Shown piece by piece: positions 26,406 through 52,081 of a stretch of DNA of 52,081 nt. The DNA lies in the IMG/VR virus record IMGVR_UViG_3300031974_001518, positions 1 to 52,081 of that record; one strand, 5' to 3'. The stretch is from a virus (taxonomy: Duplodnaviria > Caudoviricetes). Numbering within the stretch: the stretch's first letter is position 1; each line of letters begins with the position of its first letter. Position numbers and translations under genes: made by a program. The notes below the pieces were generated by a model, which was given only the letters and a program-made list of their open reading frames with translations, did not search any database and was not told where the DNA came from.

Positions 26406-27159
26406 GTTCAGTATCTCCTAATGACTTTAAGTCTTTATCCAGCATCAAGATGCCAGTGGGCACGAGAGTATTCAAGGCTCGCATGTATGTCAAGGCTTTG
26501 TCTGTTGCGTCTTTATCGAGAGCAACAATCACACGCTTGAACTTGGTGAGGTCTGCGATGTGTTCGTCACGTAGGCTTGTCCCTAACAAGGCGTACCCTG
26601 TACACCAGTCACTGATGCTGATGGCTGACGGTATGTCTTCTACGACGAAGACTGTGTCAGACGTGCCAATCTTGAAGCCCCCACGGTAGTTACCGTAGCG
26701 ATACCACTTGGGGCGGGCATTGATAAGGGTACGTCCTGCACCGTCCACAAGCCTACCATCATTGTCCCGTATTGCGTACACCAGTCTCTTATGTCGAACA
26801 TCGTAGTAAATGTCGTCATATCTTCCGGATGTGTTTACGCTGTCAACATACTCCAAACCCTTCTGTGAGATCTGACGTGACCACGACTTAGGCTTCTCGA
26901 AGGGGACGTTTGGACATGGGGTTGTCTTTTTATGTCCCTTATCAGTAACAATGGACAGTATGTTGTCCACATTGTTGCGGGTGACACGACGGTCAGTCCG
27001 CCCCCTCTCTGCACACTCAGCATGGAAACAATTCCACATGAGCTCACCGTTGGTGTTTGTCGCGGAGAATGTGTTCTTATGTCCACACGAGGGACAGTTC
27101 ATCCTGCGGGACTCGCCATCGAAAAGTCCGAGGGACTCGACGTATTCTCTGATGTACAT
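26368..27159 (-). CDS. DNA primase (zinc finger plus TOPRIM)
   Basis: CPSC...CFHAEC zinc ribbon; VVED, ALLGT and ALDKDA TOPRIM motifs; GAGGAGG Shine-Dalgarno. Confidence 0.88.
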   Translation of the reverse strand: MYIREYVESLGLFDGESRRMNCPSCGHKNTFSATNTNGELMWNCFHAECAERGRTDRRVTRNNVDNILSIVTDKGHKKTTPCPNVPFEKPKSWSRQISQKGLEYVDSVNTSGRYDDIYYDVRHKRLVYAIRDNDGRLVDGAGRTLINARPKWYRYGNYRGGFKIGTSDTVFVVEDIPSAISISDWCTGYALLGTSLRDEHIADLTKFKRVIVALDKDATDKALTYMRALNTLVPTGILMLDKDLKSLGDTERGSLIRSAMLGE

Positions 27160-27200
27160 GGGCTAAAAGCCTCCTCAATGTTTTAGTGATCGGAAAAAAG

Positions 27201-27252
27201 CTTACCATCCCTTCTCCGAAAAAATCCACCCATTTCAAAAAATCTTACCATC
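27201..27252. repeat. Pair of CTTACCATC motifs (27201-27209, 27244-27252)
   Basis: The same 9-mer, preceded by A-tracts, also occurs at 29453, 29505 and 31688. Confidence 0.75.
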
Positions 27253-27266
27253 CTCCCTCCAAAAGG

Positions 27267-28909: not shown

Positions 28910-29447
28910 AGGTGCTGAAGTTTATACGTTAACACTGACCGAGCGGGAGACTTGTCCGCAGTCTTGTGGACACTGGGACGATTGTTACGGAAACAATATG
29001 CCATTCGCGCACCGGCTTGAGCATGGCAAGGAGCTTGAGGATCGATTGATCGAGGAGGTAGGGGAGAAGTGTCGGAAGGCCGCTAGTAAAGACCGTAAGG
29101 TATTGGTTCGCTTGCATGTACTGGGAGACTTTTACAGTGTTGCTTATGTACAACTATGGCGGAAGCTTATGGTCTTGCACAAGAATCTCTATGTCTGGGG
29201 ATACACCCACGTCACGCCATCCGATAACTTGCAAATCTACCACGAACTCACACTGGCTCGGGACGGGTTTCCGGAGAGGTGGCACGTACGATGGAGCGAT
29301 ACCGGCGGGAAGTTTAGTGCGAACAGTGAGGAACTCGGGACGACTGGTATTGTGTGTCCAGAGCAGGAAGGGAAAACGGCGGCGTGTACGACTTGCAGTC
29401 TGTGTTGGGATGCACCAGACAAGAACATCATATTTAAGACACACTGA
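28761..29447 (+). CDS. Gp88-like protein (Cys-rich, radical-SAM-related phage family)
   Basis: TCPQSCGHWDDCYG, VRLHVLGDFYS, WGYTH and CPEQ...CTTCSLCW...IIFKTH. Confidence 0.7.
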   Translation: MQVHVNIVRTTTKYKKSKRSLKDYSHDVLKKPSSAKIGSAGRYVKKGKLKGAEVYTLTLTERETCPQSCGHWDDCYGNNMPFAHRLEHGKELEDRLIEEVGEKCRKAASKDRKVLVRLHVLGDFYSVAYVQLWRKLMVLHKNLYVWGYTHVTPSDNLQIYHELTLARDGFPERWHVRWSDTGGKFSANSEELGTTGIVCPEQEGKTAACTTCSLCWDAPDKNIIFKTH

Positions 29448-29452
29448 AAAAC

Positions 29453-29519
29453 CTTACCATCACCAATCAAAACAGGACGGGAACTTTCGACCACATGAAA
29501 AAATCTTACCATCACCAAT
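29453..29519. repeat. Direct repeat CTTACCATCACCAAT x2 (29453 and 29505)
   Basis: 15-bp identical units 52 nt apart in intergenic DNA. Confidence 0.8.
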
Positions 29520-29639
29520 TCGATATTGCGCGGGGCTTGCACCCCGCTAGTTTCCCAAAAATAGAACTTGGGGAGGGATTCAGCTTGATCGCTCAAGTTT
29601 CGTTTCTTTTCGCGATACTTTATTTACTTTAAAAAAGTG

Positions 29640-31531: not shown

Positions 31532-31936
31532 GTCCCCACGACAGCCTACCTTTGGGGCTTCCCCCGTACTCCCGCCGGTACACCCAGAAAAATACCTAAG
31601 GTCTTGATTCTACTGGCCGTGGGGATATTTCGGGGTGTCGGGGGATTTCTAGGGAACCGCCCCGACATTTCGCCGAAATCCTAAATTCTTACCATCGGTG
31701 TTAAACAGACGGGTGCGCCGGACGCGATAAGGGAGGGGAAACCGGCACGGTAAACCTACGGATAGGCCGGCGGGAGTTTCGACAGGCTCGGTGAGGTTTA
31801 CTATCTGGATGATAAGAAGAAAAAAATCAATAACTTAGGGGTAGGCAAGGGTCACTGGGGGTACCCGTACTAGTGCTAGCAATCTCCCCATATTTTTTAT
31901 GGTTTTAGAAAGGGGTGTTTCACGCCAATGTTTCAC

Positions 31937-34497: not shown

Positions 34498-36111
34498 ATG
34501 GCAGAATTTGACCCGAATACAGTCACAGTAGGCGAACTAGCGAAGATCTACTCGGAAGAGCAGGAGCTTGTTAACCCATTAAACTTGGGCACTATCCTGA
34601 AAGAGTACAAAGATCAGCCTGCTTTGGCTTTTTTTGCAGAAGAAGAAGGTCAGCTTTCTCTAGCTCGTCAGGCGATAAAAGACGCTCAAGGGACTGCTAC
34701 TGAAAACGCCGTAAAGGGTGCGCTAAAGAACATGCGCTACCTGAGTAATCGTCTGTACAATGCATATGATAGAAATCCTCCACCTTTCCTTATCTCCAAC
34801 GAAAAGAACACACCGAAGATAGCTCAAGAGTTTTTTGGTGTCAAAGAGCCGCCAAAAGCTGTTTCGACGTTACAAGTAAACACAGATCCTGAAGTTCGTA
34901 AGCAGTACGTACAAGAACTCATGGACTACGCGGCGAATAACCCAGACAAGAAGCCCCACGTACGGGCGATTTTATTTGGACTAAATACCGGGTTCCGTCC
35001 TAATGCCAATATCGGTGTTACAACAGGACAATATATCCCTTCTAAAGGTGCGCTCTACATTCGTCCTGAAGTAACGGGAGCCAAAGGTAGACCTATCTCT
35101 GTTCCGCTTAATGATATTGCGGATTCGATGTTGCAACAACAACTCGCAGATTACAAGGACGCGATTTCATCTACTGGTAAAATTTGGGTAGATGCAGAAG
35201 GTAAGCCTTTAAAAACTTCCGATATTAACGCTGTTCTTGAAGAGATTAAAGTACCTAACCTAATTTACGATGAAAAGACAGGTGAATACTTCGACTCTTT
35301 TAAACCAAAGGATACTGATGGTACTAAATTCGGAATGTCTTTGTTCCGTAACTATCACACCGCGGTAGGTCGTAAGATCGGAATGAACGATCTCATTCTC
35401 GCCAAGCTACAAGGGCGGAGTACGAAAAGCTACGGTAAAGGCTCTACAGGTGAGTTGTCGACATATGACTCCAACTTCCCCGGTGATGTATCAGACTACG
35501 AGCGTGAGCAAGCCAACATGCTGACCGAAGAGTATGGTCCTGCTATTGAAACAGCAAAGAAGAATACCCGTAGCCTAGTCGACCCTACTTTCGACTTCGA
35601 CTGGGGTGGAGACTACGACACAGTCAAGACACGCATCACAGAGCGCACAGAAGGCTTTGGGAGCGACTATTTCAAACGAGAGGTAGTAGCCCCTTCCGAA
35701 ACGGCTACATCCGCTCCTAAGGCTCCTAAGGGGCTCACAGAGGAAGAGAAGGCCGGCGTTCTCAAAAGATTGACGGACTGGTCGAAGGGAGCTCTCGATA
35801 GCCCCACGACAAAAGCCATCGCTGGTATCGGTCTCACCGGTATGGGGATATCCGCCGCGCAAAGACTCGAAGCGGCAGAAGAACGTGTTTCGGCTGGTGA
35901 AGGCGAGATGCCTGCCTACCTCAAGGAAGGTGCACGGTTTGTTGCAGAAGAATTTACTCCTGCGGGGTTCGTTGAACCTGCGAAGGAAGTAATCGGTGCC
36001 GGTCTCAAAGCGGGGGCTGAAGCGGCACAGAAAGAAGCGGAAGAGAAGGGCATCTCCGGAGATATTGAAGCCCAGATCAGAAGCGTACTCGGAGTTCCCC
36101 CGCAGTTCTAA
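34498..36111 (+). CDS. Tyrosine recombinase-fold protein with a long C-terminal extension
   Basis: LNTGFRP (R167), GAKG (K196), ISVPL, SLFRNYH (R284), LQGRS and downstream Tyr (Y312/Y323), in canonical order. Confidence 0.65.
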   Translation: MAEFDPNTVTVGELAKIYSEEQELVNPLNLGTILKEYKDQPALAFFAEEEGQLSLARQAIKDAQGTATENAVKGALKNMRYLSNRLYNAYDRNPPPFLISNEKNTPKIAQEFFGVKEPPKAVSTLQVNTDPEVRKQYVQELMDYAANNPDKKPHVRAILFGLNTGFRPNANIGVTTGQYIPSKGALYIRPEVTGAKGRPISVPLNDIADSMLQQQLADYKDAISSTGKIWVDAEGKPLKTSDINAVLEEIKVPNLIYDEKTGEYFDSFKPKDTDGTKFGMSLFRNYHTAVGRKIGMNDLILAKLQGRSTKSYGKGSTGELSTYDSNFPGDVSDYEREQANMLTEEYGPAIETAKKNTRSLVDPTFDFDWGGDYDTVKTRITERTEGFGSDYFKREVVAPSETATSAPKAPKGLTEEEKAGVLKRLTDWSKGALDSPTTKAIAGIGLTGMGISAAQRLEAAEERVSAGEGEMPAYLKEGARFVAEEFTPAGFVEPAKEVIGAGLKAGAEAAQKEAEEKGISGDIEAQIRSVLGVPPQF

Positions 36112-36347: not shown

Positions 36348-38432
36348 ATGTCTGACGGGTTTATCCAACCTGCGGATGATGGACAGGTACAAGTCCAGAA
36401 CGCCGCGGAGCAAATGCCGGGATTAGCTGGATTTATCCAGAACCGGTTCGAGGATTCTGAAAATGGACGCCGCACGTTCGAGCAACGGTGGCTCCAAGCA
36501 TACAAGAATTTCCGCGGCATTTATGATTCATCTACACAGTATCGTGATTCCGAACGCTCCAAAGTGTTTATTAAGATCACGAAAACTAAGGTCTTGGCGG
36601 CTTACGGCCAGATCATCGACATTCTCTTCGCGAATAAAAAGTTCCCGATTGTGGTGGAGTCTACTCCCGTACCTGAAGGAATCGCAGAGTTTGCAAAGAT
36701 GCCGAGTCCTGTGGATCAAGTGTTGGAAGACCCGTACGGATATCCGGGGGATGGGCGTGAGCTCGAACCCGGTGCTACCCGTCTCGGTCCCTACTCCGCC
36801 AGTGGTGCGGTAGAGGGCAAAGCCCGTATCGGCGAGCCACAGGTAGAGCCAGCGGCTGAGGCGGCCCGCATACTCGAGAAGGTCATCCATGACCAGTTGC
36901 TCGACACCAACGCAGTGAACGTATTGCGTAACTCTGTTTTTGAAGCGTCACTTCTCGGTACGGGTATCGTGAAAGGGCCTTTCAACTTCTACAAGCGTGT
37001 CCACAAGTGGGAGCGTGATGAGGAAGGAAGCAGGATGTACACCCCGGATGAGAAGGTGACTCCACGTATCGAGCACGTCTCTTGTTGGGATTTCCACCCT
37101 GACCCCTCCGCAACGAGTATCGATGACTGTGAGTACGCTATCCAGCGTCACCGCATGAATCGCCAGCAGTTGCGTAACCTAATGAGTTTACCGTACTTCG
37201 ACTCCGTCGCGATTGAGAATGCGATTGTGAAGGGGCCGAACTACGAAGACAAGTACTACGAAGACACTATCCGTGAGGATGATACCGAGCCGTACTACCA
37301 AGAGAATCGGTATGAGGTTCTCGAGTACTGGGGAATGCTCGACGCGAAGCTAGCCCGCGAGGTTGGCCTTGAGCTCCCTGAGAATATTAACGAATTAGAT
37401 CAGGTGCAGATCAATGCGTGGGTGTGTGGCACGGAAGTTCTCCGTTGTGTACTCAACCCATTCACACCTGCACGTATTCCATTCCACGCTTTCCCTTACG
37501 AAGTTAACCCTTACCAATTGTGGGGCGTCGGAGTTGCAGAAAACATGGAAGATGCACAGATGCTCATGAACGGGCACGTGCGTATGGCAATCGACAACTT
37601 GGCCCTCGCAGGCAATCTCGTATTCGACGTGGATGAGGCAAGCCTCGTTCCCGGCCAGAACTTCGATATATTCCCCGGTAAGGTTTTCCGGAGACAGTCT
37701 GGCGTCACAGGTACAGCGATCAACGGGCTCAAGTTCCCGAACACTGCCCCTGAGAATATCCAGATGTACCAGATTGCTCGCCAGTTGTCGGATGAAGAGA
37801 CAGGTATCCCGAGCATCATGCACGGACAGACCGGTGTATCAGGCACAGGCCGCACCTCCTCCGGTCTATCAATGTTGATGAATGCAGGAGCGCAGTCAGT
37901 CAAGACAGTGATTAAGAACATCGATGACTACATGTTGAAGCCCCTCGGGGAAGCGTACTTCCAGTGGAATATGCAATACAACGATGAGTCGCCGGATGTT
38001 GTTGGGGACCTCGAGATCAAGCCACGGGGCACTTCGGCTGTTATGCAGAAAGAAGTTCGCTCACAGCGTCTCACAACTCTTCTCCAGACTGTTGCAAATC
38101 CGATGCTCGCTCCGTTTGTCAAGTTACCAAACTTGGTTCGCGAGCTCGCTATCGCACAGGACATCGACCCCGACCAACTCGTGAATGATGTCAATGAAGC
38201 CCAGCTATACGCTGAAGTACTAAAAGGTATGCAGAATGTTCAACAAGGAACAGGCCCAGAAGGTGGCCCCGCTGGTCAACAACCCGCAGGCATGGGAAGC
38301 CCTGACGGCTTATCTGGCGGATCTCCACCAGTTGACGCTTCGGGGGTTGGTAACAGCACAATCGGAACGGGAAATGTTCCAGTTGCAGGGGAAGATGGCT
38401 TTACTGGACAGCCTCCAGAGCCTCAAGGATAA
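36348..38432 (+). CDS. Portal protein
   Basis: 694 aa after TerL; WLQAYKNFRG, FIKITKTKVLAAY, DFHPDP, WGVGVAE, RMAIDN.ALAGN and GRTSSGLSMLM. Confidence 0.88.
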   Translation: MSDGFIQPADDGQVQVQNAAEQMPGLAGFIQNRFEDSENGRRTFEQRWLQAYKNFRGIYDSSTQYRDSERSKVFIKITKTKVLAAYGQIIDILFANKKFPIVVESTPVPEGIAEFAKMPSPVDQVLEDPYGYPGDGRELEPGATRLGPYSASGAVEGKARIGEPQVEPAAEAARILEKVIHDQLLDTNAVNVLRNSVFEASLLGTGIVKGPFNFYKRVHKWERDEEGSRMYTPDEKVTPRIEHVSCWDFHPDPSATSIDDCEYAIQRHRMNRQQLRNLMSLPYFDSVAIENAIVKGPNYEDKYYEDTIREDDTEPYYQENRYEVLEYWGMLDAKLAREVGLELPENINELDQVQINAWVCGTEVLRCVLNPFTPARIPFHAFPYEVNPYQLWGVGVAENMEDAQMLMNGHVRMAIDNLALAGNLVFDVDEASLVPGQNFDIFPGKVFRRQSGVTGTAINGLKFPNTAPENIQMYQIARQLSDEETGIPSIMHGQTGVSGTGRTSSGLSMLMNAGAQSVKTVIKNIDDYMLKPLGEAYFQWNMQYNDESPDVVGDLEIKPRGTSAVMQKEVRSQRLTTLLQTVANPMLAPFVKLPNLVRELAIAQDIDPDQLVNDVNEAQLYAEVLKGMQNVQQGTGPEGGPAGQQPAGMGSPDGLSGGSPPVDASGVGNSTIGTGNVPVAGEDGFTGQPPEPQG

Positions 38433-38463
38433 CCATAGGGCGGTGATCGACAATGGCGGTTAA
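38236..38463 (+). CDS. Small post-portal protein overlapping the portal C-terminus
   Basis: Amphipathic helical protein (LVNNPQAWEAL...EMFQLQGKMALLDSL) of the type found after podovirus portals. Confidence 0.6.
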   Translation: MFNKEQAQKVAPLVNNPQAWEALTAYLADLHQLTLRGLVTAQSEREMFQLQGKMALLDSLQSLKDNHRAVIDNGG

Positions 38464-40435
38464 CTACGGTAGCGGCTACAACATCTACTCCTCGATTCGG
38501 AACAAGATCCGGTCGAAGAAGGCGTACAAGAAGTATTACGGTGAGATGTCCGCTCTCTACGGTGAGCAACAGGCGGCGGAGCAGGCCGAGGCTGGAATGG
38601 GGGAAGACCCTACTCCGGGTCCTATCAGTAGGTCTACGCTCGGTGACGAAATACCCGGACAGGGTGCTGTTTCTGGAGCAGGTCCAGCAGGACCGGGACT
38701 CCCCGGACAGTTTTCGAGTATGATCGGAGGGACGTTTGCCAGTGGCCCCGGTGGCGCGATGCAAATATCGGCCGACCAGATTGGAAACATAAGTAGTAGT
38801 GCAGAGCAAATGACGTCGGGCGAGTACGCTATTTCTCAGGCGACCCCCTACGGTATTGGCGCGGATATCGCCAAAGCAACAGGTTTTGAAACTGCCGGTA
38901 TACTCGCTGAGAACCTCGTCTCTTTAATGGACGTTTCTCCCTTCGGTATGATCAGCGGCTTCATGGCTGGTACAACAGTTAAGGGACCCTACGGAAAAGA
39001 CATGGCAGTACCGGGCGGAATCCTCGGTGCCGTTGCCGAAATGAACATCAAGAACCAGTTCGAGGTTGCGGAAAAAATCAAGGCCGGCGAACTCGGCTAC
39101 CACCAGATGCGGGTCAACGGGTCACTGGTTTCCATTGTTCCCCAAACACTATTCGGCAAGCAACTCGGGTACGCTGTTCTCGGTACGTACAATGGAACAA
39201 GTCAGCAAGCGATCAACCAATATGCTTCGATGCAAGGGCTCGACCCCCGCACCGTAGATCTCGGGGCGAGTTCCGGACGAGTGGAGGGGCAACCCCTCGA
39301 TGGTTTTATTCAAGGGGTTGGCGGATTTACGAATGACGGAATGTTTGCGTCCCCCCTTACGGGTGAAGTGACGAGTGTTGCGGACTTTGATATGGGGGGA
39401 ATCCGCTCCCAAGTCGGTCTCGTGAATTCAGTATACGGTCCCGAGAAAGCAATGAACGTCGTGAATGGTCTTACGGGGTTGAGCGACAGCACTCGGGGAA
39501 GCCTTGCGGAGGGTATCGCGAGCGGTTCGTTGACTGCAAACCAAGTCGTTGACAATGATGGTAATGTAGTCGGCTTCTCTACAATGACTGGTAATGTTGT
39601 CCGCTCTGCGGATGGTATCGTGACCAGTGCGGGAGGTCGCCCTGTTACATCAGGCACAGGCATTATTAGTATTGAACAGGTGGAGAGAGCACAGGAACAG
39701 GCAGAGGCGGATGCATCGGGTAGTGGCTTAGGAATGGGAGTCGGTAGATTGCCCGGATACTCAACAATTTCTGGAAGAACTGGCATGACCACAACGGGTG
39801 CCGGGGAAGGAGCTTCTGTTTCATCCGGTAGAGGTACCGATGCGGCTAACGTGGATTCAGGTAGAGGGGGCATGGGTCCTTCTTCATCAGGCCCGAGTTC
39901 TGCGTCTGCTAGCCCAAGCGACGCTCCGGGTACTCCATTCGCTGAAGGCGGTGTAGTAAATCCTGCTGAGCAAGTCCCTCCCGGCGAAGCACCCATTGCT
40001 ACAGAAGCAGGCTTTGTTAAGACAGAACCCGAGAACGTATCTCCAGCAGAAACTATCGCTGACGATCAAGCGTTAGAGGTTCCGGAAGGTACATTCGTGC
40101 TCAATGCGGCCGCTGTCGAGTTCATGGGATCGGCTGATGTTAAGAAGATGATCTTGGATGCGATGCAAGAGGCTGAGAAGCAAGGTATTGACATCAAGCA
40201 GGATAACGCTAAAATAGCTAAGGAGGACCTTGTATCTTTGGTAGTATCCAAGGGTGAAGTGATTATTCCTCCCCAGCTTGCCGAAATCATCGGTTATGAC
40301 CGCCTAAATAAGATTAACAATCGTGGTAAAGCTGAAGTTCAAAGACGTTCAGACGAAAAGGAGCAGATGAAAGAAGCCGCTCCTACACCCCCAATTTTAG
40401 CAAAATCAGGTGGATTTATCTCCAAGCCCTCCTGA
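38453..40435 (+). CDS. Gly/Ser-rich putative virion protein
   Basis: 660 aa; FAEGG then ADD...EGTFVLNAAAV...SKGEVIIPP C-terminal domain. Confidence 0.6.
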   Translation: MAVNYGSGYNIYSSIRNKIRSKKAYKKYYGEMSALYGEQQAAEQAEAGMGEDPTPGPISRSTLGDEIPGQGAVSGAGPAGPGLPGQFSSMIGGTFASGPGGAMQISADQIGNISSSAEQMTSGEYAISQATPYGIGADIAKATGFETAGILAENLVSLMDVSPFGMISGFMAGTTVKGPYGKDMAVPGGILGAVAEMNIKNQFEVAEKIKAGELGYHQMRVNGSLVSIVPQTLFGKQLGYAVLGTYNGTSQQAINQYASMQGLDPRTVDLGASSGRVEGQPLDGFIQGVGGFTNDGMFASPLTGEVTSVADFDMGGIRSQVGLVNSVYGPEKAMNVVNGLTGLSDSTRGSLAEGIASGSLTANQVVDNDGNVVGFSTMTGNVVRSADGIVTSAGGRPVTSGTGIISIEQVERAQEQAEADASGSGLGMGVGRLPGYSTISGRTGMTTTGAGEGASVSSGRGTDAANVDSGRGGMGPSSSGPSSASASPSDAPGTPFAEGGVVNPAEQVPPGEAPIATEAGFVKTEPENVSPAETIADDQALEVPEGTFVLNAAAVEFMGSADVKKMILDAMQEAEKQGIDIKQDNAKIAKEDLVSLVVSKGEVIIPPQLAEIIGYDRLNKINNRGKAEVQRRSDEKEQMKEAAPTPPILAKSGGFISKPS

Positions 40436-40447
40436 GATACATATTCC

Positions 40448-40515
40448 GCGGCTACCCTGCAATCCCGCAGGCCCCGCTAATACGACTACGGCTACCCTCA
40501 GCCATGAGGCCCCGT
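40448..40515 (+). promoter_or_regulatory. Tandem structured RNA element in the scaffold leader
   Basis: Two units, GCGG-CTAC-CCTGC-loop-GCAGG-CC-CCGC and ACGG-CTAC-CCTCA-loop-TGAGG-CC-CCGT, with compensatory stem changes. Confidence 0.75.
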
Positions 40516-40531
40516 GAGATAGGAGAATAAA

Positions 40532-41419
40532 ATGGCAAAACCAAAAGGGCATCGCGCCAATAAAGCAAATGATAGCTTCGGTACAATCAACGACAACAAC
40601 CTATATCGTGGAAAGTATCGTGAAGAAGTCTATCAGGATGAAGACGAAGTAGCAACAGTTGAGGACCCCTCTCAAGAAGAGGCCACTCCCGAGACACAAG
40701 AAGATGTTAGCTTCGCAAAGCCCAGAGAAGAGTCAGATACTGACTATAAGAAGCGTTACGACGACTTAAAGCGTCACTACGATTCTAAACTTGAAGAGTG
40801 GAAAAAGGAACGCGAGGAAATCTCGAGTGCTCAACAAGTTGGCCGTGAACAAGGATTGAGTAATGCACAGCTTCCGAAGACTCCCGAGGAGTTGGACGAG
40901 TTCAAGCAGAAATATCCGGATGTCTACGCCATCGTTGAAACCGTATCTTCTCTCCAAGCGGAGAACAAAGTAAAGACACTAAAAGAAGAAGTCGAAACAC
41001 TCAAGGGTCGTGAGAAAGACCTGAAAGTGCAGGGAGCGTACAAAGAGTTGCTCAGTGCACATCCAGACTTTCCTCAGATCAAAGCGGATGAGAAGTTTTT
41101 GATGTGGTTGGATGAACAACCTCAGTCCATCGCAGATGGAATCTACAAGAACAACACAGACGCTAAATGGGCAATCCGCGTCCTCGATCTGTACAAAGCA
41201 GATAGTGGAATTGGCAAAAAGACTAAAAAGTCTCGAGATGTCGACCCAGCCGCAGTAGTCACAAGAACGGCTACGAAAGATGTGACTGGAGAAGCTCAGA
41301 CAGATAAGAAAATCTGGAAGGCTTCAGAAATTGGCCGACTCAAGCCGTGGGAATTCGAGAAGATTGAAAAAGAAATCGATGCCGCACGTGCAGAAGGCCG
41401 AATCGACTATTCACAATAA
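40532..41419 (+). CDS. Capsid scaffolding protein (putative)
   Basis: Acidic coiled coil directly before MCP; YKKRYDDLKRH, YPDVY, AHPDF and C-terminal ARAEGRI. Confidence 0.75.
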   Translation: MAKPKGHRANKANDSFGTINDNNLYRGKYREEVYQDEDEVATVEDPSQEEATPETQEDVSFAKPREESDTDYKKRYDDLKRHYDSKLEEWKKEREEISSAQQVGREQGLSNAQLPKTPEELDEFKQKYPDVYAIVETVSSLQAENKVKTLKEEVETLKGREKDLKVQGAYKELLSAHPDFPQIKADEKFLMWLDEQPQSIADGIYKNNTDAKWAIRVLDLYKADSGIGKKTKKSRDVDPAAVVTRTATKDVTGEAQTDKKIWKASEIGRLKPWEFEKIEKEIDAARAEGRIDYSQ

Positions 41420-41455
41420 CACTAACCTAACTATCTCATAAGGAAGGGTAATAAC

Positions 41456-42394
41456 ATGGCTTTTGATAGCGCATCAGGTTATAACAACCTGCCTTCAGGT
41501 AACTTTACTCCTGAGATCTTTTCTCAGAAAGTCCTGAAGTTTTTCCGTCGTGCCTCTGTTGTAGAGGATATCACAAACACTGATTATGCTGGTGAAATCG
41601 AAAACTTCGGTGACACAGTACGCATCATCAAAGAACCTACAATCACTGTATCTTCTTACTCACGTGGTGCTGTGGTAAATCCACAAGACCTCGCTGACGA
41701 CCAGATCACAATGGTTGTTGACCAAGCGAATGCTTTCGCGTTCAAGATCGACGACATCGAAGAGCGTCAGTCACACGTTAACTTTGAAGCGTTGGCTACA
41801 TCTTCAGGTGCGTTCTCTCTGAAGCGTAAGTACGATGCAAACGTCCTCCAAGCGATGGCTGACGGTGCAGGCAACACAGGTACCACTTTCGGTACAGCGG
41901 CCGCTCCTATCGACATCACTGGTACAGGCAACGAAGACGCTGGTGTTAACTTGATGTTAGCAATGGCACGTGCAATGGACGACGAGTCGATCCCTGAAGA
42001 AAACCGTTTCTTCGTAGCACCTCCTATCTTCTGGGAGAACCTGTTCAAGGCGGGATCTAAGTTTGCAGAAGTACAGGTAACTGGCGACGCAACTTCACCT
42101 CTCCGTAACGGTCTCGTTATGCAGGGCAACATTGCTGGCATGAACTGCTACAAGACAACTGCACTGAACAACTCTGGCACAGACGTCGTGACAATCACTT
42201 CACAGGATACTACAAATGACTTCGTAGTTATCGCTGGTCACATGTCTTCTACGGCGACTGCATCGCACATCGCTAAGACAGAAGTTGTCCGTTCAACAGA
42301 AACATTCAGCGACATTGTTCGTGGTCTTCACGTATTCGGCCGTAAGGTCTTGCGTCCAGAAGCCCTCGTACAGGGTGTCGTTAAGACTGACTAA
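41456..42394 (+). CDS. Major capsid protein
   Basis: FTPEIFSQKVL, ITNTDYAGEI..GDTVRI and DIVRGLHVFGRKVLRPE; strongly biased codon use. Confidence 0.88.
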   Translation: MAFDSASGYNNLPSGNFTPEIFSQKVLKFFRRASVVEDITNTDYAGEIENFGDTVRIIKEPTITVSSYSRGAVVNPQDLADDQITMVVDQANAFAFKIDDIEERQSHVNFEALATSSGAFSLKRKYDANVLQAMADGAGNTGTTFGTAAAPIDITGTGNEDAGVNLMLAMARAMDDESIPEENRFFVAPPIFWENLFKAGSKFAEVQVTGDATSPLRNGLVMQGNIAGMNCYKTTALNNSGTDVVTITSQDTTNDFVVIAGHMSSTATASHIAKTEVVRSTETFSDIVRGLHVFGRKVLRPEALVQGVVKTD

Positions 42395-42844: not shown

Positions 42845-42866
42845 GGGGCCTTCGGGCCCCTTCTTT
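42845..42866 (+). terminator. Intrinsic terminator after the capsid genes
   Basis: GGGGCC-TTCG-GGCCCC-TTCTTT. Confidence 0.8.
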
Positions 42867-47971: not shown

Positions 47972-49564
47972 ATGGGACAAGGATATACTCGTAACGATAC
48001 GGCCAACAACATTGCTGATGGAAACATCATCAACGCATCGGATCTCGACGGAGAGTTTGATGCCATTCAGGCCGCGTTTAACGCATCAAACGGACACTCA
48101 CACGACGGCTCATCTGGGGAAGGCCCCGAGATCACCACAGCCGGTTTAGCAGATGATGCTGTTACTGCCGCAAAACTAGATGATACAGCCAGTTTCACGA
48201 TGGCAGGACTCACCGTATCTGGGGCGGTGTCTCTCAACGGTAGTACAACCATCGGTAACGCCGATACGGATACTGTCACAGTCACCGCAGATGTTGCCTC
48301 GAGTTTGATCCCGTCTGCTGATGCGACCCACGATCTCGGTGCGACAGGTTCGGAGTGGAACGACCTCTACATCACAGGTACTGCTAACATCGATGCCCTC
48401 GTTGCTGATACAGCGGACATCAACGCCGGATCTATCGATGGGGTAACCATCGGTACAAACTCCGCAGTTACGGATCTCCGCGTCGACAACCTCCAAATTG
48501 ACGGTAACACCATCTCGTCCACAGACACTGCTGGGGATATCACCCTCACACCTGATGGTACTGGTAATGTTAACCTCGATGCGGACACGGTCCGTGTAGG
48601 GGATTCAGGGGTTGACGCGACGGTTACGACAAATGGTGCCGGGGACATCATTATCAATACCAACGCAGGCTCTTCTTCAGGTTCGATTCGTATCTACGAC
48701 GGAGCAGATGGGGATATCAACCTCACCCCCAACGGCACAGGTTCCGTGGTTATCTCGAAGGCAGATATCAACGGTGGGGCTATCGATGCAACCAATATCG
48801 GTGCCGCGACTGCTGGTACGGGTAATTTCTCGACGCTGTCCATCGATGGTACTGCGATTACCTCCACAGCCACCGAACTCAACATCCTTGACGGTGCTAC
48901 TCTAGACGTAAACGAACTCAACATCCTTGACGGGGTAACTTCCACAACTGCGGAGTTAAACCTCGTTGATGGCTCAACTGCCGGTACCATCGTCAACAGC
49001 AAAGCGGTGGTTTACGGTGCGTCTGGTGAAGTCAATGCAACCACCCTTCAGGTTGGCGGTACAGCTATCACGGCAACTCCCGCAGAGATCAACCTCCTTG
49101 ATGGGGTTACGGCTACAACAGCAGAACTGAACTACGTCGATGGCGTTACTTCAGCGATCCAGACTCAGTTAGACGCAAAGGAAACGGCTGACGCTGATAT
49201 CGTCAAGAAGGACGAGAACAACACATTCACAGCCGCACAACGTGGATCAACCGACACAGATACAACCAACACTGGTGACATTACACTTGACTTTGATGCC
49301 AACCAGAACTTTGTCCTCACACTCACTGGCAATATCACGCTAAAAAATCCTTCTACTGAATCAGTCGGGCAGTCTGGATTCATCGTGTTTATTCAAGATG
49401 CTACTGGCAATCGCACAGTCTCGCTTGAGTCGGAGTACAAAACTGCGGGAGGCGTGGACTCAATCACCTTATCCACAGCGGCAAGTACAACTGATCTTGT
49501 TCCATATATCGTATCAGCGTCCGGTAGTATCTTACTTGGCGCACCACAACTGGCGTTTTCATAA
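47972..49564 (+). CDS. Tail fibre protein
   Basis: Adaptor-like N-terminus (GHSHDG); T/G/D-rich shaft with 13-aa ELN.LDG repeats. Confidence 0.75.
   Translation: MGQGYTRNDTANNIADGNIINASDLDGEFDAIQAAFNASNGHSHDGSSGEGPEITTAGLADDAVTAAKLDDTASFTMAGLTVSGAVSLNGSTTIGNADTDTVTVTADVASSLIPSADATHDLGATGSEWNDLYITGTANIDALVADTADINAGSIDGVTIGTNSAVTDLRVDNLQIDGNTISSTDTAGDITLTPDGTGNVNLDADTVRVGDSGVDATVTTNGAGDIIINTNAGSSSGSIRIYDGADGDINLTPNGTGSVVISKADINGGAIDATNIGAATAGTGNFSTLSIDGTAITSTATELNILDGATLDVNELNILDGVTSTTAELNLVDGSTAGTIVNSKAVVYGASGEVNATTLQVGGTAITATPAEINLLDGVTATTAELNYVDGVTSAIQTQLDAKETADADIVKKDENNTFTAAQRGSTDTDTTNTGDITLDFDANQNFVLTLTGNITLKNPSTESVGQSGFIVFIQDATGNRTVSLESEYKTAGGVDSITLSTAASTTDLVPYIVSASGSILLGAPQLAFS
48859..49144 (+). 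repeat. Coding repeats (T.T.AELN.LDG); 21-bp identical units at 48874 and 48913
   Basis: CGAACTCAACATCCTTGACGG occurs twice 39 nt apart; five peptide copies in total. Confidence 0.75.
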
Positions 49565-51984
49565 TGTTTGATAATAGTCAATTTTTCTCAGGCGGTGCGG
49601 CGGGCTTCTACGACTTCCCGCTAGAGCAGAGTCTACGGTTCAATGATGATGACAGTGCGTACCTAGAGTGGACTCCTGATAGCAATCCAACAACTGCGGG
49701 AGTATTTACGTTTAGTTTTTGGTTTAAGTTATCCAATCCGTCTAGTCCTGCGACAATTTTATACCCGTATACGGACAGCAATAATTTTGGGCAAGTAGCA
49801 CTTTCCTCAAACCAGTTAAGTGTTTACTCCGCTATTGGCGGAAGTGCAAAAGTCAATGTAAAAACAACTGCGGTACTGCGTGACTATTCGGCTTGGTATC
49901 ATGCAGTAATAAAATTCAATTCAACTTCAGGCAATGAAGAAATAAAGATATACCTAAACGGAGTAAATCAATCATTAACTACTACCACGGCAATGACAGC
50001 GCATACTCCAAAATATGCCGCCAACGGTGTGGATCATTATTTCGGAAGTAACTTTAATCAATCAGGACTATTCGACGGCTACCTAGCCGAAGTCAACTTC
50101 ATCGACGGCACAGCCCTAGACGCTGACTCATTCGGTGAACTCAAGAACGGTGTGTGGATTCCTAAAGACCCATCAGGACTGGCCTACGGTACGAATGGCT
50201 TTCGATTGAGTTTTGCAGACGATGCAGAGGTGGAGGCGTTTAATACTGTCTTGTATGAAGGCAACGGAGCTACAACAACAAGTACGCAAAGTGTTACTGG
50301 CGTTGGCTTTTCACCAGATTTAGTCTGGATTAAAAACAGAGATAACACTACGAGCAATTCTTTGTACGATACGATTCGTGGTGCAGACGTTACTTTAAGA
50401 ACCAACACAACTGATAAAGATTTTGATTACGGGAATACCTTATTGTCTTTTGACTCTGATGGTTTTACTGTTGGTAATTATTCACACGTTAATGGCAATG
50501 GATTAAGCCACGTTGCTTGGTGTTGGAAAGCAGGAGGCGCACCTACCGTTGACAACTCAGCAGGGGCGGGGAGTGTCCCAACAGCAGGTAGCGTCAAGAT
50601 TGATGGCGTTAACTCTACGTCTGCACTAGCGGGGACTATTTCTGCTACAAGACTTTCTGCTAGCACTACTTATGGTTTCTCTATCGTGAAGTGGTCAGGA
50701 AACCAAACTTCAGGCGCAACCGTTGGTCATGAGCTTGGGGCTTCTCCGTCTTTAATTATTACCAAATGTACTAGCCATGCGACAAGTTGGGTAGTTGGCA
50801 TAGGCGGTCTTTCTGGCTTTGGAGTTAATGATTATCTAACGCTTCAGACAACAGGTGCTAAAAATTCATCATCTACGTTTTATCAAGCATATGGTACAGA
50901 TACGTTTACCGTTGGAGTTTCTTCCGCTGATGAAATGAATAAGACAAGCAGAGATTATATTTCTTATGTCTGGGCTGAGAAGTCGGGGTATTCTAAGTTT
51001 GATAGCTATTCTGGAGCAACAGGCGAAATAACTGTTTACACAACAGATGATGGTACATCTAGCGGAACCAATCCATTTAAGCCCGCTTTTGTTCTACTCA
51101 AGCGTACTGACAGCGATCCGGGCGATGCGTACTGGGTTATATTTGATAACACTCGTGATGTTGAAGGCGATAATGGTAGGCATCTTTTTGCTAATTTAAC
51201 TGCCACCGAATCTGATAGCTCATCTCGTAAAATAACTTTTAATGATAATGGATTTACCATTCCTGCTTCTGCGTCAGCAGATGCTTCAGTTAACGCAGGA
51301 TCAGGCACATACATCTACGCCGCCTTTGCAGACACACGGGAAGCGGCCTTCTGGCTAGATCAGACAAGTAATGACAACGATTGGCAACCTGTCAACCTAG
51401 ACCATAACGATACGTTGGCTGATAGTCCGACGAATAACTTCTGCACCATGAATCCAATTGCTAAGTTTGGCACACCTAGTGCGTTTACGCTCGCTGACGG
51501 AAACCTAGACTTAACTTTTACATCTACTTCTGGCAACGATAGCGCAGTCGGAACAATGGGTCTTACATCTGGCAAGTGGTATCACGAAGTCACTCTTGTT
51601 TCTCATGCAGACGATTCAAATGCAGGGTTTACAACTGCCGAAGCACTAGCAACTGAAACAAACACAGATGGTGCGGCTTACTTTAAGTCAGTCGGATATC
51701 ATCGTGGAGATAGAGCAATTATCTGGGGTACGGAACCTAGCCCTACGCAACGCTTTACTACATTATCTGATGGTAGTGTTCTTGGCTTTGCTTTAGACCT
51801 TGATTCGACACCGCAAACTTTAAAGATTTATCTGAATGGCGGAGCAAGCCCCATCGTAGATGTAGAGCTACCAACAGACAAAGGAGATACTTGGATTCCC
51901 TGTTGTGGCGATGATGGTGGTGATGCAGGGCGATTTATATTCAATTTCGGCCAACAACCATTCAAGTACGATCCACCGGCATAA
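49564..51984 (+). CDS. Multi-domain tail fibre / receptor-binding protein (LamG/ConA-like N-terminus, SPRY-like C-terminus)
   Basis: SLRFNDDDS, FTFSFW, WYH, FDGYLAEVNFIDG, DSPTNNF, SGKWYHEV and NFGQ. Confidence 0.75.
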   Translation: MFDNSQFFSGGAAGFYDFPLEQSLRFNDDDSAYLEWTPDSNPTTAGVFTFSFWFKLSNPSSPATILYPYTDSNNFGQVALSSNQLSVYSAIGGSAKVNVKTTAVLRDYSAWYHAVIKFNSTSGNEEIKIYLNGVNQSLTTTTAMTAHTPKYAANGVDHYFGSNFNQSGLFDGYLAEVNFIDGTALDADSFGELKNGVWIPKDPSGLAYGTNGFRLSFADDAEVEAFNTVLYEGNGATTTSTQSVTGVGFSPDLVWIKNRDNTTSNSLYDTIRGADVTLRTNTTDKDFDYGNTLLSFDSDGFTVGNYSHVNGNGLSHVAWCWKAGGAPTVDNSAGAGSVPTAGSVKIDGVNSTSALAGTISATRLSASTTYGFSIVKWSGNQTSGATVGHELGASPSLIITKCTSHATSWVVGIGGLSGFGVNDYLTLQTTGAKNSSSTFYQAYGTDTFTVGVSSADEMNKTSRDYISYVWAEKSGYSKFDSYSGATGEITVYTTDDGTSSGTNPFKPAFVLLKRTDSDPGDAYWVIFDNTRDVEGDNGRHLFANLTATESDSSSRKITFNDNGFTIPASASADASVNAGSGTYIYAAFADTREAAFWLDQTSNDNDWQPVNLDHNDTLADSPTNNFCTMNPIAKFGTPSAFTLADGNLDLTFTSTSGNDSAVGTMGLTSGKWYHEVTLVSHADDSNAGFTTAEALATETNTDGAAYFKSVGYHRGDRAIIWGTEPSPTQRFTTLSDGSVLGFALDLDSTPQTLKIYLNGGASPIVDVELPTDKGDTWIPCCGDDGGDAGRFIFNFGQQPFKYDPPA

Positions 51985-51993
51985 GGAACTGAT

Positions 51994-52081
51994 ATGGCAT
52001 ATTTACCACTCAGCACAGCCAACCTACCTGATCCGGTGATTGATCCTGCACAGGGCGAGAGTCCTGAAGATTACTTTGGGA
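51994..52081 (+). CDS. 5' fragment identical to the start of 181..1290
   Basis: 88 nt identical; MAYLPLSTANLPDPVIDPAQGESPEDYFG. Confidence 0.85.
   Translation, partial: MAYLPLSTANLPDPVIDPAQGESPEDYFG

Follow-up and report, generated by a model that had tools for sequence, protein, structure and literature searches.

A twin-hairpin mRNA leader with a conserved internal loop upstream of a putative scaffolding gene in HMO-2011-type marine podoviruses

The short gap upstream of a putative scaffolding gene in the viral genome IMGVR_UViG_3300031974_001518 contains two tandem hairpins which share an asymmetric internal loop. Comparison with related sequences confirms that these twin hairpins are a selected RNA structure. 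Their role is less certain. We favour, tentatively and on sequence grounds, a new cis-regulatory RNA in which the loops would be protein recognition sites (probably for a phage scaffold or coat protein) controlling ribosome access to the Shine-Dalgarno sequence; this reading has somewhat less than an even chance of being correct.

The record is analysed here over its whole length of 52,081 bp (the window); it is 97%-complete and has a G+C content of 49.9%. The genome encodes a family-A DNA polymerase, a DnaB-type helicase, a ribonucleotide reductase and endonuclease I, together with a large terminase, an SU10-type portal, a coat protein and a lysozyme. Neither an RNA polymerase nor a recognisable RNA-binding domain was found among its proteins by PHROG and Pfam domain search. 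The portal gene is followed by a 660-aa ORF, a 295-aa ORF and the coat gene, in that order. The coat protein belongs to phrog_267, annotated as 'P22 coat protein' in relatives; its closest cultured relative is that of Pelagibacter phage HTVC033P (58.5%), followed by those of further HMO-2011-type phages, which infect SAR11, Roseobacter and SAR116. Podoviruses of this type rank among the commonest phages of these three groups. The features of the region are as follows.

36348-38432, portal (SU10-type)
38453..40435, plus strand, upstream ORF of 660 aa, no PHROG or Pfam match
40448..40477, plus strand, hairpin 1 (covariance model R1, 33.2 bits, E 4e-7; MFE fold)
40478..40487, plus strand, linker between the hairpins
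40488..40515, plus strand, hairpin 2 (R1, 38.4 bits, E 1e-8; MFE fold; RNAalifold)
40521..40525, plus strand, Shine-Dalgarno sequence AGGAG, 5 nt past hairpin 2 and 6 nt before the ATG
40532..41419, plus strand, putative scaffolding protein of 295 aa (phrog_13678, no assigned function)
41456..42394, plus strand, major capsid protein of the P22-coat type (phrog_267, 4.8e-58)
42845..42860, plus strand, G+C hairpin resembling a terminator, followed by a T-rich tail (called only by a consensus scan, which finds no more such sites than in shuffles)

Three other features of the genome were noted. There is a 140-nt direct repeat, 94% identical, at both ends of the record (129-268 and 51942-52081). 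It covers the end of the last ORF (49564-51984, DUF7483, tail-fibre-like) and the start of the first (181-1290, DUF7483), and reflects either paralogy of the two fibre genes or an imperfect overlap of the ends. Between the large terminase and the portal, an odd place for an integrase, a 537-aa ORF (34498-36111) has a weak tyrosine-integrase match (25.0 bits in Pfam, below the cut-off of 27.1; phrog_216 at 2e-6). Finally, an A-rich word ending in CTTACCATC is present in five copies, paired 43-52 nt apart, at 27181-27264, 29433-29525 and 31668-31696. These copies occupy three intergenic gaps of the early or replication region (after the ORFs ending at 27159, 29447 and 31599) and look like repeated promoter or operator sites.

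The stop codon of the 660-aa ORF (40433-35) lies 12 nt 5' of hairpin 1, and the 96-nt gap between this ORF and the ATG of the 295-aa gene at 40532 is almost entirely occupied by the two hairpins and the Shine-Dalgarno sequence. Hairpin 1 has an outer stem of 4 bp (GCGG/CCGC), an inner stem of 5 bp (CCUGC/GCAGG) and a 6-nt apical loop (AAUCCC); between the stems is a 4x2 internal loop in which CUAC (40452-55) stands opposite CC (40472-73). Hairpin 2 has the same internal loop (CUAC 40492-95, CC 40510-11) between an outer stem ACGG/CCGU (4 bp) and an inner stem CCUCA/UGAGG (5 bp), and its apical loop is GCCA (40501-04). Its outer stem can be extended to 5 bp by a U.G pair (40487/40516). The minimum free energy fold of the leader consists of exactly these two hairpins. 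Direct reading of the sequence thus bears out the preliminary description, which had reported two units with an identical CUAC/CC loop, the second ending 5 nt before AGGAG (40515 and 40521). The stem changes that it named are also correct: the outermost G-C pair of hairpin 1 becomes A-U in hairpin 2, and the inner G-C and C-G pairs become C-G and A-U.

The same description took this covariation within one genome as strong evidence of selected structure. The selection itself is upheld by the relatives described below, but the window alone provides weak evidence. The fold of the leader has a z-score of -1.18, with 26 of 200 shuffles folding equally well, and the two occurrences of the shared 10-mer in the window are at chance level when one mismatch is allowed (shuffle mean 2.32; two or more in 64 of 100 shuffles). 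The single-genome claim was overstated, since neither value is beyond chance. Model R1 finds only these two hairpins in the window; the next best match scores 11.5 bits with filters off, so there is no third copy. A pattern search of the record likewise returns two forward matches and no reverse match.

Two kinds of transcription signal were considered. A promoter-like sequence, TTGACA-16-TAAAAT, is found at 40188-40215 and matches the consensus at 11 of 12 positions. It was rejected as a promoter for the region, as its exact pattern is present in only 3 of 78 relatives and the window holds 4 such sites compared with 4.6 in shuffles. Neither hairpin is followed by a T run, and a terminator scan calls no terminator at them. 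The terminator-like site at 42845..42860 stands 3' of a 141-aa ORF that follows the capsid gene and is a possible end of the scaffold-capsid unit. Small shares (at most 0.21) were found in 24 metatranscriptome runs, all as contigs, and contigs from four metatranscriptome runs carry relatives' sequences spanning the leader and the capsid gene. In one run, two contigs end at 40514 and 40518; RNA ends cannot be read from contigs, and an assembly branch point is likely at this place.

A blastn search with 39800-41500 against 50,697 phage records gave no match. Relatives were found by other routes. A search with a half-site pattern returned 88 viral contigs, 80 of which have the pattern in the equivalent leader, ahead of a gene that begins ATGGCAA; the remaining eight (L023, L026, L032, L033, L051, L075, L081 and L083) are chance matches inside unrelated coding sequence and were discarded. 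A set found by pattern is biased towards that pattern, and loci were therefore also fetched through the downstream protein (the best 80 of 296 relatives, 55-77% identity). R1 gives 159 matches in these best 80 of 296 loci, every one of them on the gene strand and in the leader. The hairpins are paired in 79 of the 80; the exception is L099, where the end of the locus cuts the first unit. A regular-expression scan of 78 protein-fetched loci, 363.5 kb in all, gave 155 units on the gene strand against 2 on the other and 6 when the sequence was reversed as a control; 73 of the 78 loci had exactly two units. The linker between the hairpins is 4-15 nt long (mode 8). GGAG or GAGG lies 2-6 nt past the last hairpin in all 54 distinct leaders, and 6-10 nt separate it from the ATG.

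Covariation was assessed in an alignment of 62 distinct units. The scan that selected them required at least 3 outer and at least 2 inner pairs, which inflates the percentage of paired cells (92%, versus 62% in shuffles) but not the diversity of pair types. At nine of the ten stem pairs both sides change. The units score 0.71 for covariation, versus 0.17 in shuffles, none of 500 of which reaches 0.71, and the score drops to 0.12 or less when the partners are slid by 1-3 columns. Stems total 5-12 bp; outer stems include GCGG/CCGC, GUCAG/CUGAC, GCUGG/CCAGC, GACAG/CUGUC, GCAG/CUGC and GAG/CUC, and inner stems are equally varied. When 46 distinct protein-fetched leaders were aligned blind, RNAalifold recovered hairpin 2 with 7 pairs, 4 of them compensated. 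Hairpin 1 was missed in the same alignment; the cause is that MAFFT places its 3' strand one column apart in different lineages. Selection on the structure is thus proven by the relatives and not by one genome alone.

It should be noted that covariation keeps complementarity on both DNA strands alike. G.U pairs were considered as proof that the RNA strand is the selected one and were rejected, as the wobble cells comprise 5 G.U and 6 A.C and so carry no strand signal. Both points would suit an element acting at the DNA level, such as a single-strand hairpin or cruciform for replication or packaging, or a hairpin promoter. However, the motif always has one orientation to the gene, sits in the leader a few nucleotides from the Shine-Dalgarno sequence inside a co-oriented structural block, and lies a long way from the terminase gene and either genome end; it is on the mRNA strand that the asymmetric loop reads as conserved. 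A DNA-level role is most improbable.

The internal loop is far more constant than the stems. When any 4x2 loop of the form NNAC/NN before long ORFs was scanned for, 57 distinct units were of the type G|CUAC|C / G|CC|C. Variants comprise 9 units with CA as the short strand, 7 with CCAC/CA, 3 with CCAC/CC and 2 with U-A for the C-G closing pair; AUAC/AC and CGAC/CC occur once each, and every other combination occurs 1-3 times. The G-C pair 5' of CUAC is invariant in the 62 aligned units, and the C-G pair 3' of it is present in 60. The consensus module is thus 5'-G CUAC C-3' opposite 5'-G C(C/A) C-3', closed by G-C pairs. Apical loops, unlike the internal loop, vary widely in relatives. An invariant unpaired loop framed by freely changing stems points to a recognition site rather than a hairpin kept merely for stability.

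The motif is found well beyond the close relatives of the window genome. Among 80 loci fetched as HTVC033P homologues, R1 has 78 matches, all on the gene strand and in the leader. Every locus of this set that includes the leader has the motif (75 of 75); the remaining five (L211, L241, L242, L244 and L245) begin within the gene. Among 23 cultured or complete records sharing the coat type, 18 have the motif before the gene preceding the coat gene. The preliminary description had named absence from the scaffold leaders of relatives as an observation that would refute its reading; this check did not refute it. Tandem units are found in HTVC104P, HTVC103P and HTVC115P, in addition to the window group. 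One unit is found in HTVC033P, CRP-603, CRP-235, CRP-13, CRP-9, CRP-207, CRP-2 and phiM6. CRP-738 has a variant hairpin with AUAC opposite AC, which was read by eye and is not found by R1; counting this variant, a single module is present in 9 of the 23 records. The motif is absent from Slicky01, Aeromonas phages 1233 and MQM1, and Vibrio phage CHOED (4 of 23). In the cultured phages it lies 0-11 nt from the Shine-Dalgarno sequence.

The remaining carriers (HMO-2011, CRP-212, CRP-3, CRP-1, CRP-345, RHph_N3_19 and the spring virus ctYwJ313) have a stacked form, in which two CUAC loops are inverted on one long hairpin. The second loop lies on the 3' strand, beyond an inner hairpin with a stem that again covaries (CCAUAC/GUGUGG, CCGAGC/GCUCGG, CCGG/CCGG, CCU/AGG, CCAGC/GCUGG and CCUGCA/UGCAGG). 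R1 scores weakly on these forms (12-23 bits, E up to 0.7), and their second loop was read by eye. For HMO-2011, ctYwJ313 and phiM6 the energy model prefers another register, with GGCUAC paired to GUGGCC.

Several differences between lineages were observed around the leader. Sinorhizobium phage phiM6 (L258, 2840-2904) has a second CUAC/CC hairpin (R1, 17.3 bits) in the 215-nt gap before the capsid gene, and the motif may control both head genes in this phage. The gap between scaffold and coat genes is 36 nt in the window and 240-290 nt in HMO-2011 (L250, 3254-3495), CRP-212, CRP-3 and CRP-1; that of HMO-2011 contains a near-consensus promoter-like site, TTGACA-17-TATAAC. Expression of the coat gene seems to be organised differently among lineages. 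In CRP-345 (L268, 1029-1073) the annotated start of the gene in the scaffold position (1054) falls within the conserved hairpin; the gene probably begins further downstream. Some HTVC033P-like members have a first hairpin with a CCAC/CC loop which overlaps the end of the upstream ORF (L178, 2404-2441). HTVC033P-like leaders (L091, 3472-3494; L170-L240) also contain an upstream word, AUUAUGGAA, which repeats the start-codon context. This word can pair with the hairpin loop and 3' strand, and the minimum free energy fold uses that pairing, which is a possible alternative structure. The Aeromonas and Vibrio relatives L272, L273 and L275 have a different conserved hairpin, CGUACA-loop-UGUACG, directly before the Shine-Dalgarno sequence of the same gene; it may be an analogous but unrelated leader structure.

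The gene that follows the leader is plausibly a scaffold gene. Its 295-aa product has no Pfam domain, and its 3972 homologue clusters are all unnamed. The family alignment is variable at the N-terminus, with conserved blocks in the centre and at the C-terminus; proteins of the window group and of the HTVC033P-like group are 35-37% identical, and their N-termini cannot be aligned. An AlphaFold model (pLDDT 71.5, pTM 0.34) shows disorder over residues 1-63, long helices spanning 69-106 and 129-176, and helical structure at the C-terminus. When this model was compared with viral models (BFVD) by Foldseek, uncharacterised relatives ranked first, and weak matches named 'Capsid assembly protein' and 'Scaffolding protein' followed (E 4e-4 to 0.09, TM below 0.3). 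Low TM values are expected for extended helices. The scaffold identity assumed in the preliminary description is thus backed by the neighbouring P22-type coat gene and by the long-helix model, while the fold matches are weak and phrog_13678 has no assigned function.

The preliminary description had proposed a two-site protein-binding translational operator or a processing signal that sets the scaffold:capsid ratio. The selected structure of paired units beside the ribosome-binding site supports this in part, and the rest of the proposal is plausible. The element can be pictured as a cis-acting leader RNA of the scaffold mRNA in HMO-2011-type marine podoviruses. The internal loop would be the functional module, and the stems would only hold its shape. 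Each loop would be recognised by a trans-acting protein, most likely from the head-assembly module of the phage itself (unassembled scaffold or coat). A protein bound 0-11 nt from the Shine-Dalgarno sequence would hinder 30S binding, given that the fixed position of the motif, a few nucleotides away, would place it inside the 30S footprint. Repression while the binder is free would match scaffold synthesis to assembly. Protein binding, the identity of the binder and the repression of translation initiation are what we infer from the sequences. Two features of the leader are those of an operator: a conserved structured site is within 30S reach (2-6 nt in 54/54 leaders, 0-11 nt in cultured phages), and sequence-specific unpaired bases are kept while the stems covary. 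The presence of the motif at one place per genome points to this one cistron as the target, and two modules per leader suggest a multimeric (dimeric or oligomeric) partner. Modules stacked on one coaxial helix cannot touch, so that they would be independent sites, which fits a dimeric or oligomeric binder. With neither an RNA polymerase nor any recognisable RNA-binding domain encoded by the phage, the binder may be an unconventional one such as a structural protein.

Some observations fit this picture less well. Module spacing varies (linkers of 4-15 nt; about 4-7 bp of stacked helix, judged by eye) in a way that a rigid dimer would probably not tolerate, and the 9 of 23 records with a single module count against a reading that depends on two. 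The scaffold is an awkward candidate for the binder, since the protein diverges fast while the loop appears frozen, unless the central and C-terminal blocks bind. Closeness to the Shine-Dalgarno sequence could also be a mere result of the compact intergenic space (96 nt in the window).

All 17 carriers with a recorded host infect SAR11, SAR116, Rhodobacteraceae or Rhizobiaceae, which we take from the host names to be Alphaproteobacteria. On this distribution, a host factor conserved in the class (a ribosomal protein, an RNase, a chaperone or the ribosome itself) could recognise the loop and time or boost scaffold translation. Such a factor would explain an invariant loop across phages of these four groups as well as a phage protein does; the proteins of the phage module diverge much faster than the loop, and all four gammaproteobacterial relatives (Slicky01, 1233, MQM1 and CHOED) are without the motif. 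These relatives are, however, also more distant, with coat identities of 38-40%, and the absence may reflect phage lineage. A SAR11 single-cell genome contains a phage contig with two units, and R1 matches that contig only; in 40 other genomes of the same family there is no match at E 0.05 or better. This search covers one host family and could miss a site buried in rRNA. The result argues against simple mimicry of a host hairpin, which was rejected within this limited reach. We regard a host factor as quite unlikely. The loop signature, the number of modules, the position near the Shine-Dalgarno sequence, the uniqueness of the motif in each genome and its absence from the 40 genomes of one host family together favour a binder from the phage head module.

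An effect on the mRNA itself is also conceivable. The hairpins could be a cleavage site, or a protective structure at a 5' end (or at the 3' end of the upstream message), which raises the scaffold-capsid mRNA above the portal-side mRNA; the loop would then be a feature for recognition or anti-recognition by a nuclease. The element nearly fills the gap between a gene on the low-copy side and the high-copy scaffold and capsid genes, there is no convincing conserved promoter upstream, and a terminator-like site follows the scaffold-capsid unit. T7-type phages use intercistronic hairpins with internal loops in this manner. On the other hand, each hairpin has only 9-10 bp, far below the approximately two helical turns that RNase III needs. 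A stabiliser requires neither an invariant loop sequence nor two modules, and the inverted stacked form has no obvious meaning as a nuclease barrier. Processing or stabilisation is an unlikely explanation on this balance, but a rival to be taken seriously.

The apical loop of hairpin 2 has a further property. Its sequence GCCA (40501-40504) is complementary to UGGC (40533-40536) of the AUGGCA start. All 54 distinct window-like leaders carry GCCA in one apical loop and never in both: in hairpin 2 in 47 (46 with CCA wholly in the loop) and in hairpin 1 in 7 (6 likewise); the A serves as the closing base in two of the 54. In HTVC033P-like leaders the usual combination is UCCA with AUGGAA. This pairing of GCCA with AUGGC and of UCCA with AUGGA suggested a loop-to-start pseudoknot with covariation, which was rejected. 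The first base of the loop is U, C or A in the HTVC033P group (80 loci) while the start is unchanged, and cultured phages break the association: in CRP-212, CRP-3, CRP-603, CRP-2, CRP-235 and HTVC115P an AUGG start is found without a CCA loop, and CRP-1 shows the opposite combination. The complementarity appears to be limited to certain lineages, where it could form a start-codon pseudoknot.

These loops bear on whether the leader might work without a protein, as a sensor or switch made of tandem riboswitch-like hairpins or of a loop-to-start pseudoknot that gates the ribosome binding site. The invariable presence of one start-complementary GCCA loop in the window-like leaders would suit a switch of this kind, and tandem near-identical hairpins beside a Shine-Dalgarno sequence resemble the layout of the guanidine-II (mini-ykkC) riboswitch. 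Against it, the conserved bases are internal and not apical, no ACGR is present, and Rfam gives nothing. A 4x2 loop is small for a ligand pocket, and the complementarity to the start is neither family-wide nor supported by real covariation. A protein-independent switch is very unlikely. Returning to the protein-bound operator, a more specific version can be proposed: the CUAC-loop leader would be an undescribed RNA family, shared by HMO-2011-type pelagiphages, roseophages and related rhizobiophages and acting as an operator for feedback of unassembled head protein on scaffold translation, with two modules binding an oligomer and with the GCCA loop locking the AUGGC start in the window lineage. 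Taken as a whole, this version is possible but doubtful.

Rfam 15 has no match at the gathering threshold in the whole window. The best hit in a permissive search of 40380-40600 is Mu-gpT-DE at 14.9 bits (cut-off 49; E 0.46), and it covers only the Shine-Dalgarno/ATG part; the preliminary description had likewise been unable to assign the motif to a known family. No description of the motif was met in the literature searched, including term look-ups in PMC2704228 and PMC5737381. The element thus appears to be a new structured mRNA leader or operator, with an unusual internal-loop module in two apparently interchangeable architectures.

The motif is a ready marker for the head module in viromes. 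It is also a concrete, mutable target for finding how dsDNA phages set the ratio of scaffold to coat, a question posed since autoregulation was described in P22, for which no defined RNA site is known. It further offers a compact 4x2 internal-loop module for study of its partner and three-dimensional form, and cultured hosts and phages (HTVC033P, HTVC104P, HMO-2011, the CRP phages and phiM6) allow direct testing.

Known RNA elements resemble the leader only in part. Kink-turns are defined by a three-nt bulge and tandem sheared G.A pairs; the loop strands here are CUAC and CC or CA, and contain no G. The put antitermination RNA of HK022 consists of two stem-loops directly downstream of a promoter and acts on RNA polymerase. 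The leader has two stem-loops; no conserved promoter was found upstream of them, and their tight link to the Shine-Dalgarno sequence is not a feature of put. RNase III sites of T7-type phages resemble the leader in being hairpins with internal loops that lie between cistrons of late phage mRNA, ahead of highly expressed head genes. They have about 20 bp or more of helix, whereas the window hairpins have 4+5 bp each and fall short of two turns.

Guanidine-II riboswitches are likewise built of two small hairpins in tandem, nearly identical, whose stems covary and whose linker is variable in length, and they lie just upstream of the Shine-Dalgarno sequence. Their conserved ACGR apical loops kiss; here the apical loops are AAUCCC and GCCA in the window and variable in relatives, the internal loops are the fixed part, and the stacked-inverted form has no counterpart among guanidine-II riboswitches. 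The coat proteins of MS2 and PP7 bind a small mRNA hairpin and repress the neighbouring cistron. A few unpaired bases within a covarying stem are recognised in those phages, as is proposed here. The MS2/PP7 operator is, however, a single hairpin of ssRNA phages which holds the start codon, a bulged purine and a specific apical loop, whereas the present hairpins lie upstream of the Shine-Dalgarno sequence, have a 4x2 pyrimidine-rich loop, usually come in two copies and belong to a dsDNA genome.

The E. coli thrS operator has two stem-loop domains by the Shine-Dalgarno sequence, each bound by one subunit of a dimeric protein that competes with the 30S subunit. The leader likewise has two similar stem-loops upstream of and adjoining the Shine-Dalgarno sequence. 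The thrS domains mimic tRNA anticodon arms and have conserved apical bases, whereas in the leader the internal loop is conserved and no tRNA likeness was seen. As for P22, Wyckoff and Casjens reportedly found in 1985 that its scaffold represses its own synthesis post-transcriptionally; we know of no RNA operator defined for this autoregulation. The 295-aa protein has no detectable sequence relation to the P22 scaffold (no Pfam domain and no named PHROG). Its gene has the same place in a head module of P22 type, immediately followed by a P22-type coat gene, and the logic proposed here by analogy, in which scaffold synthesis would be matched to assembly post-transcriptionally, is that of P22.
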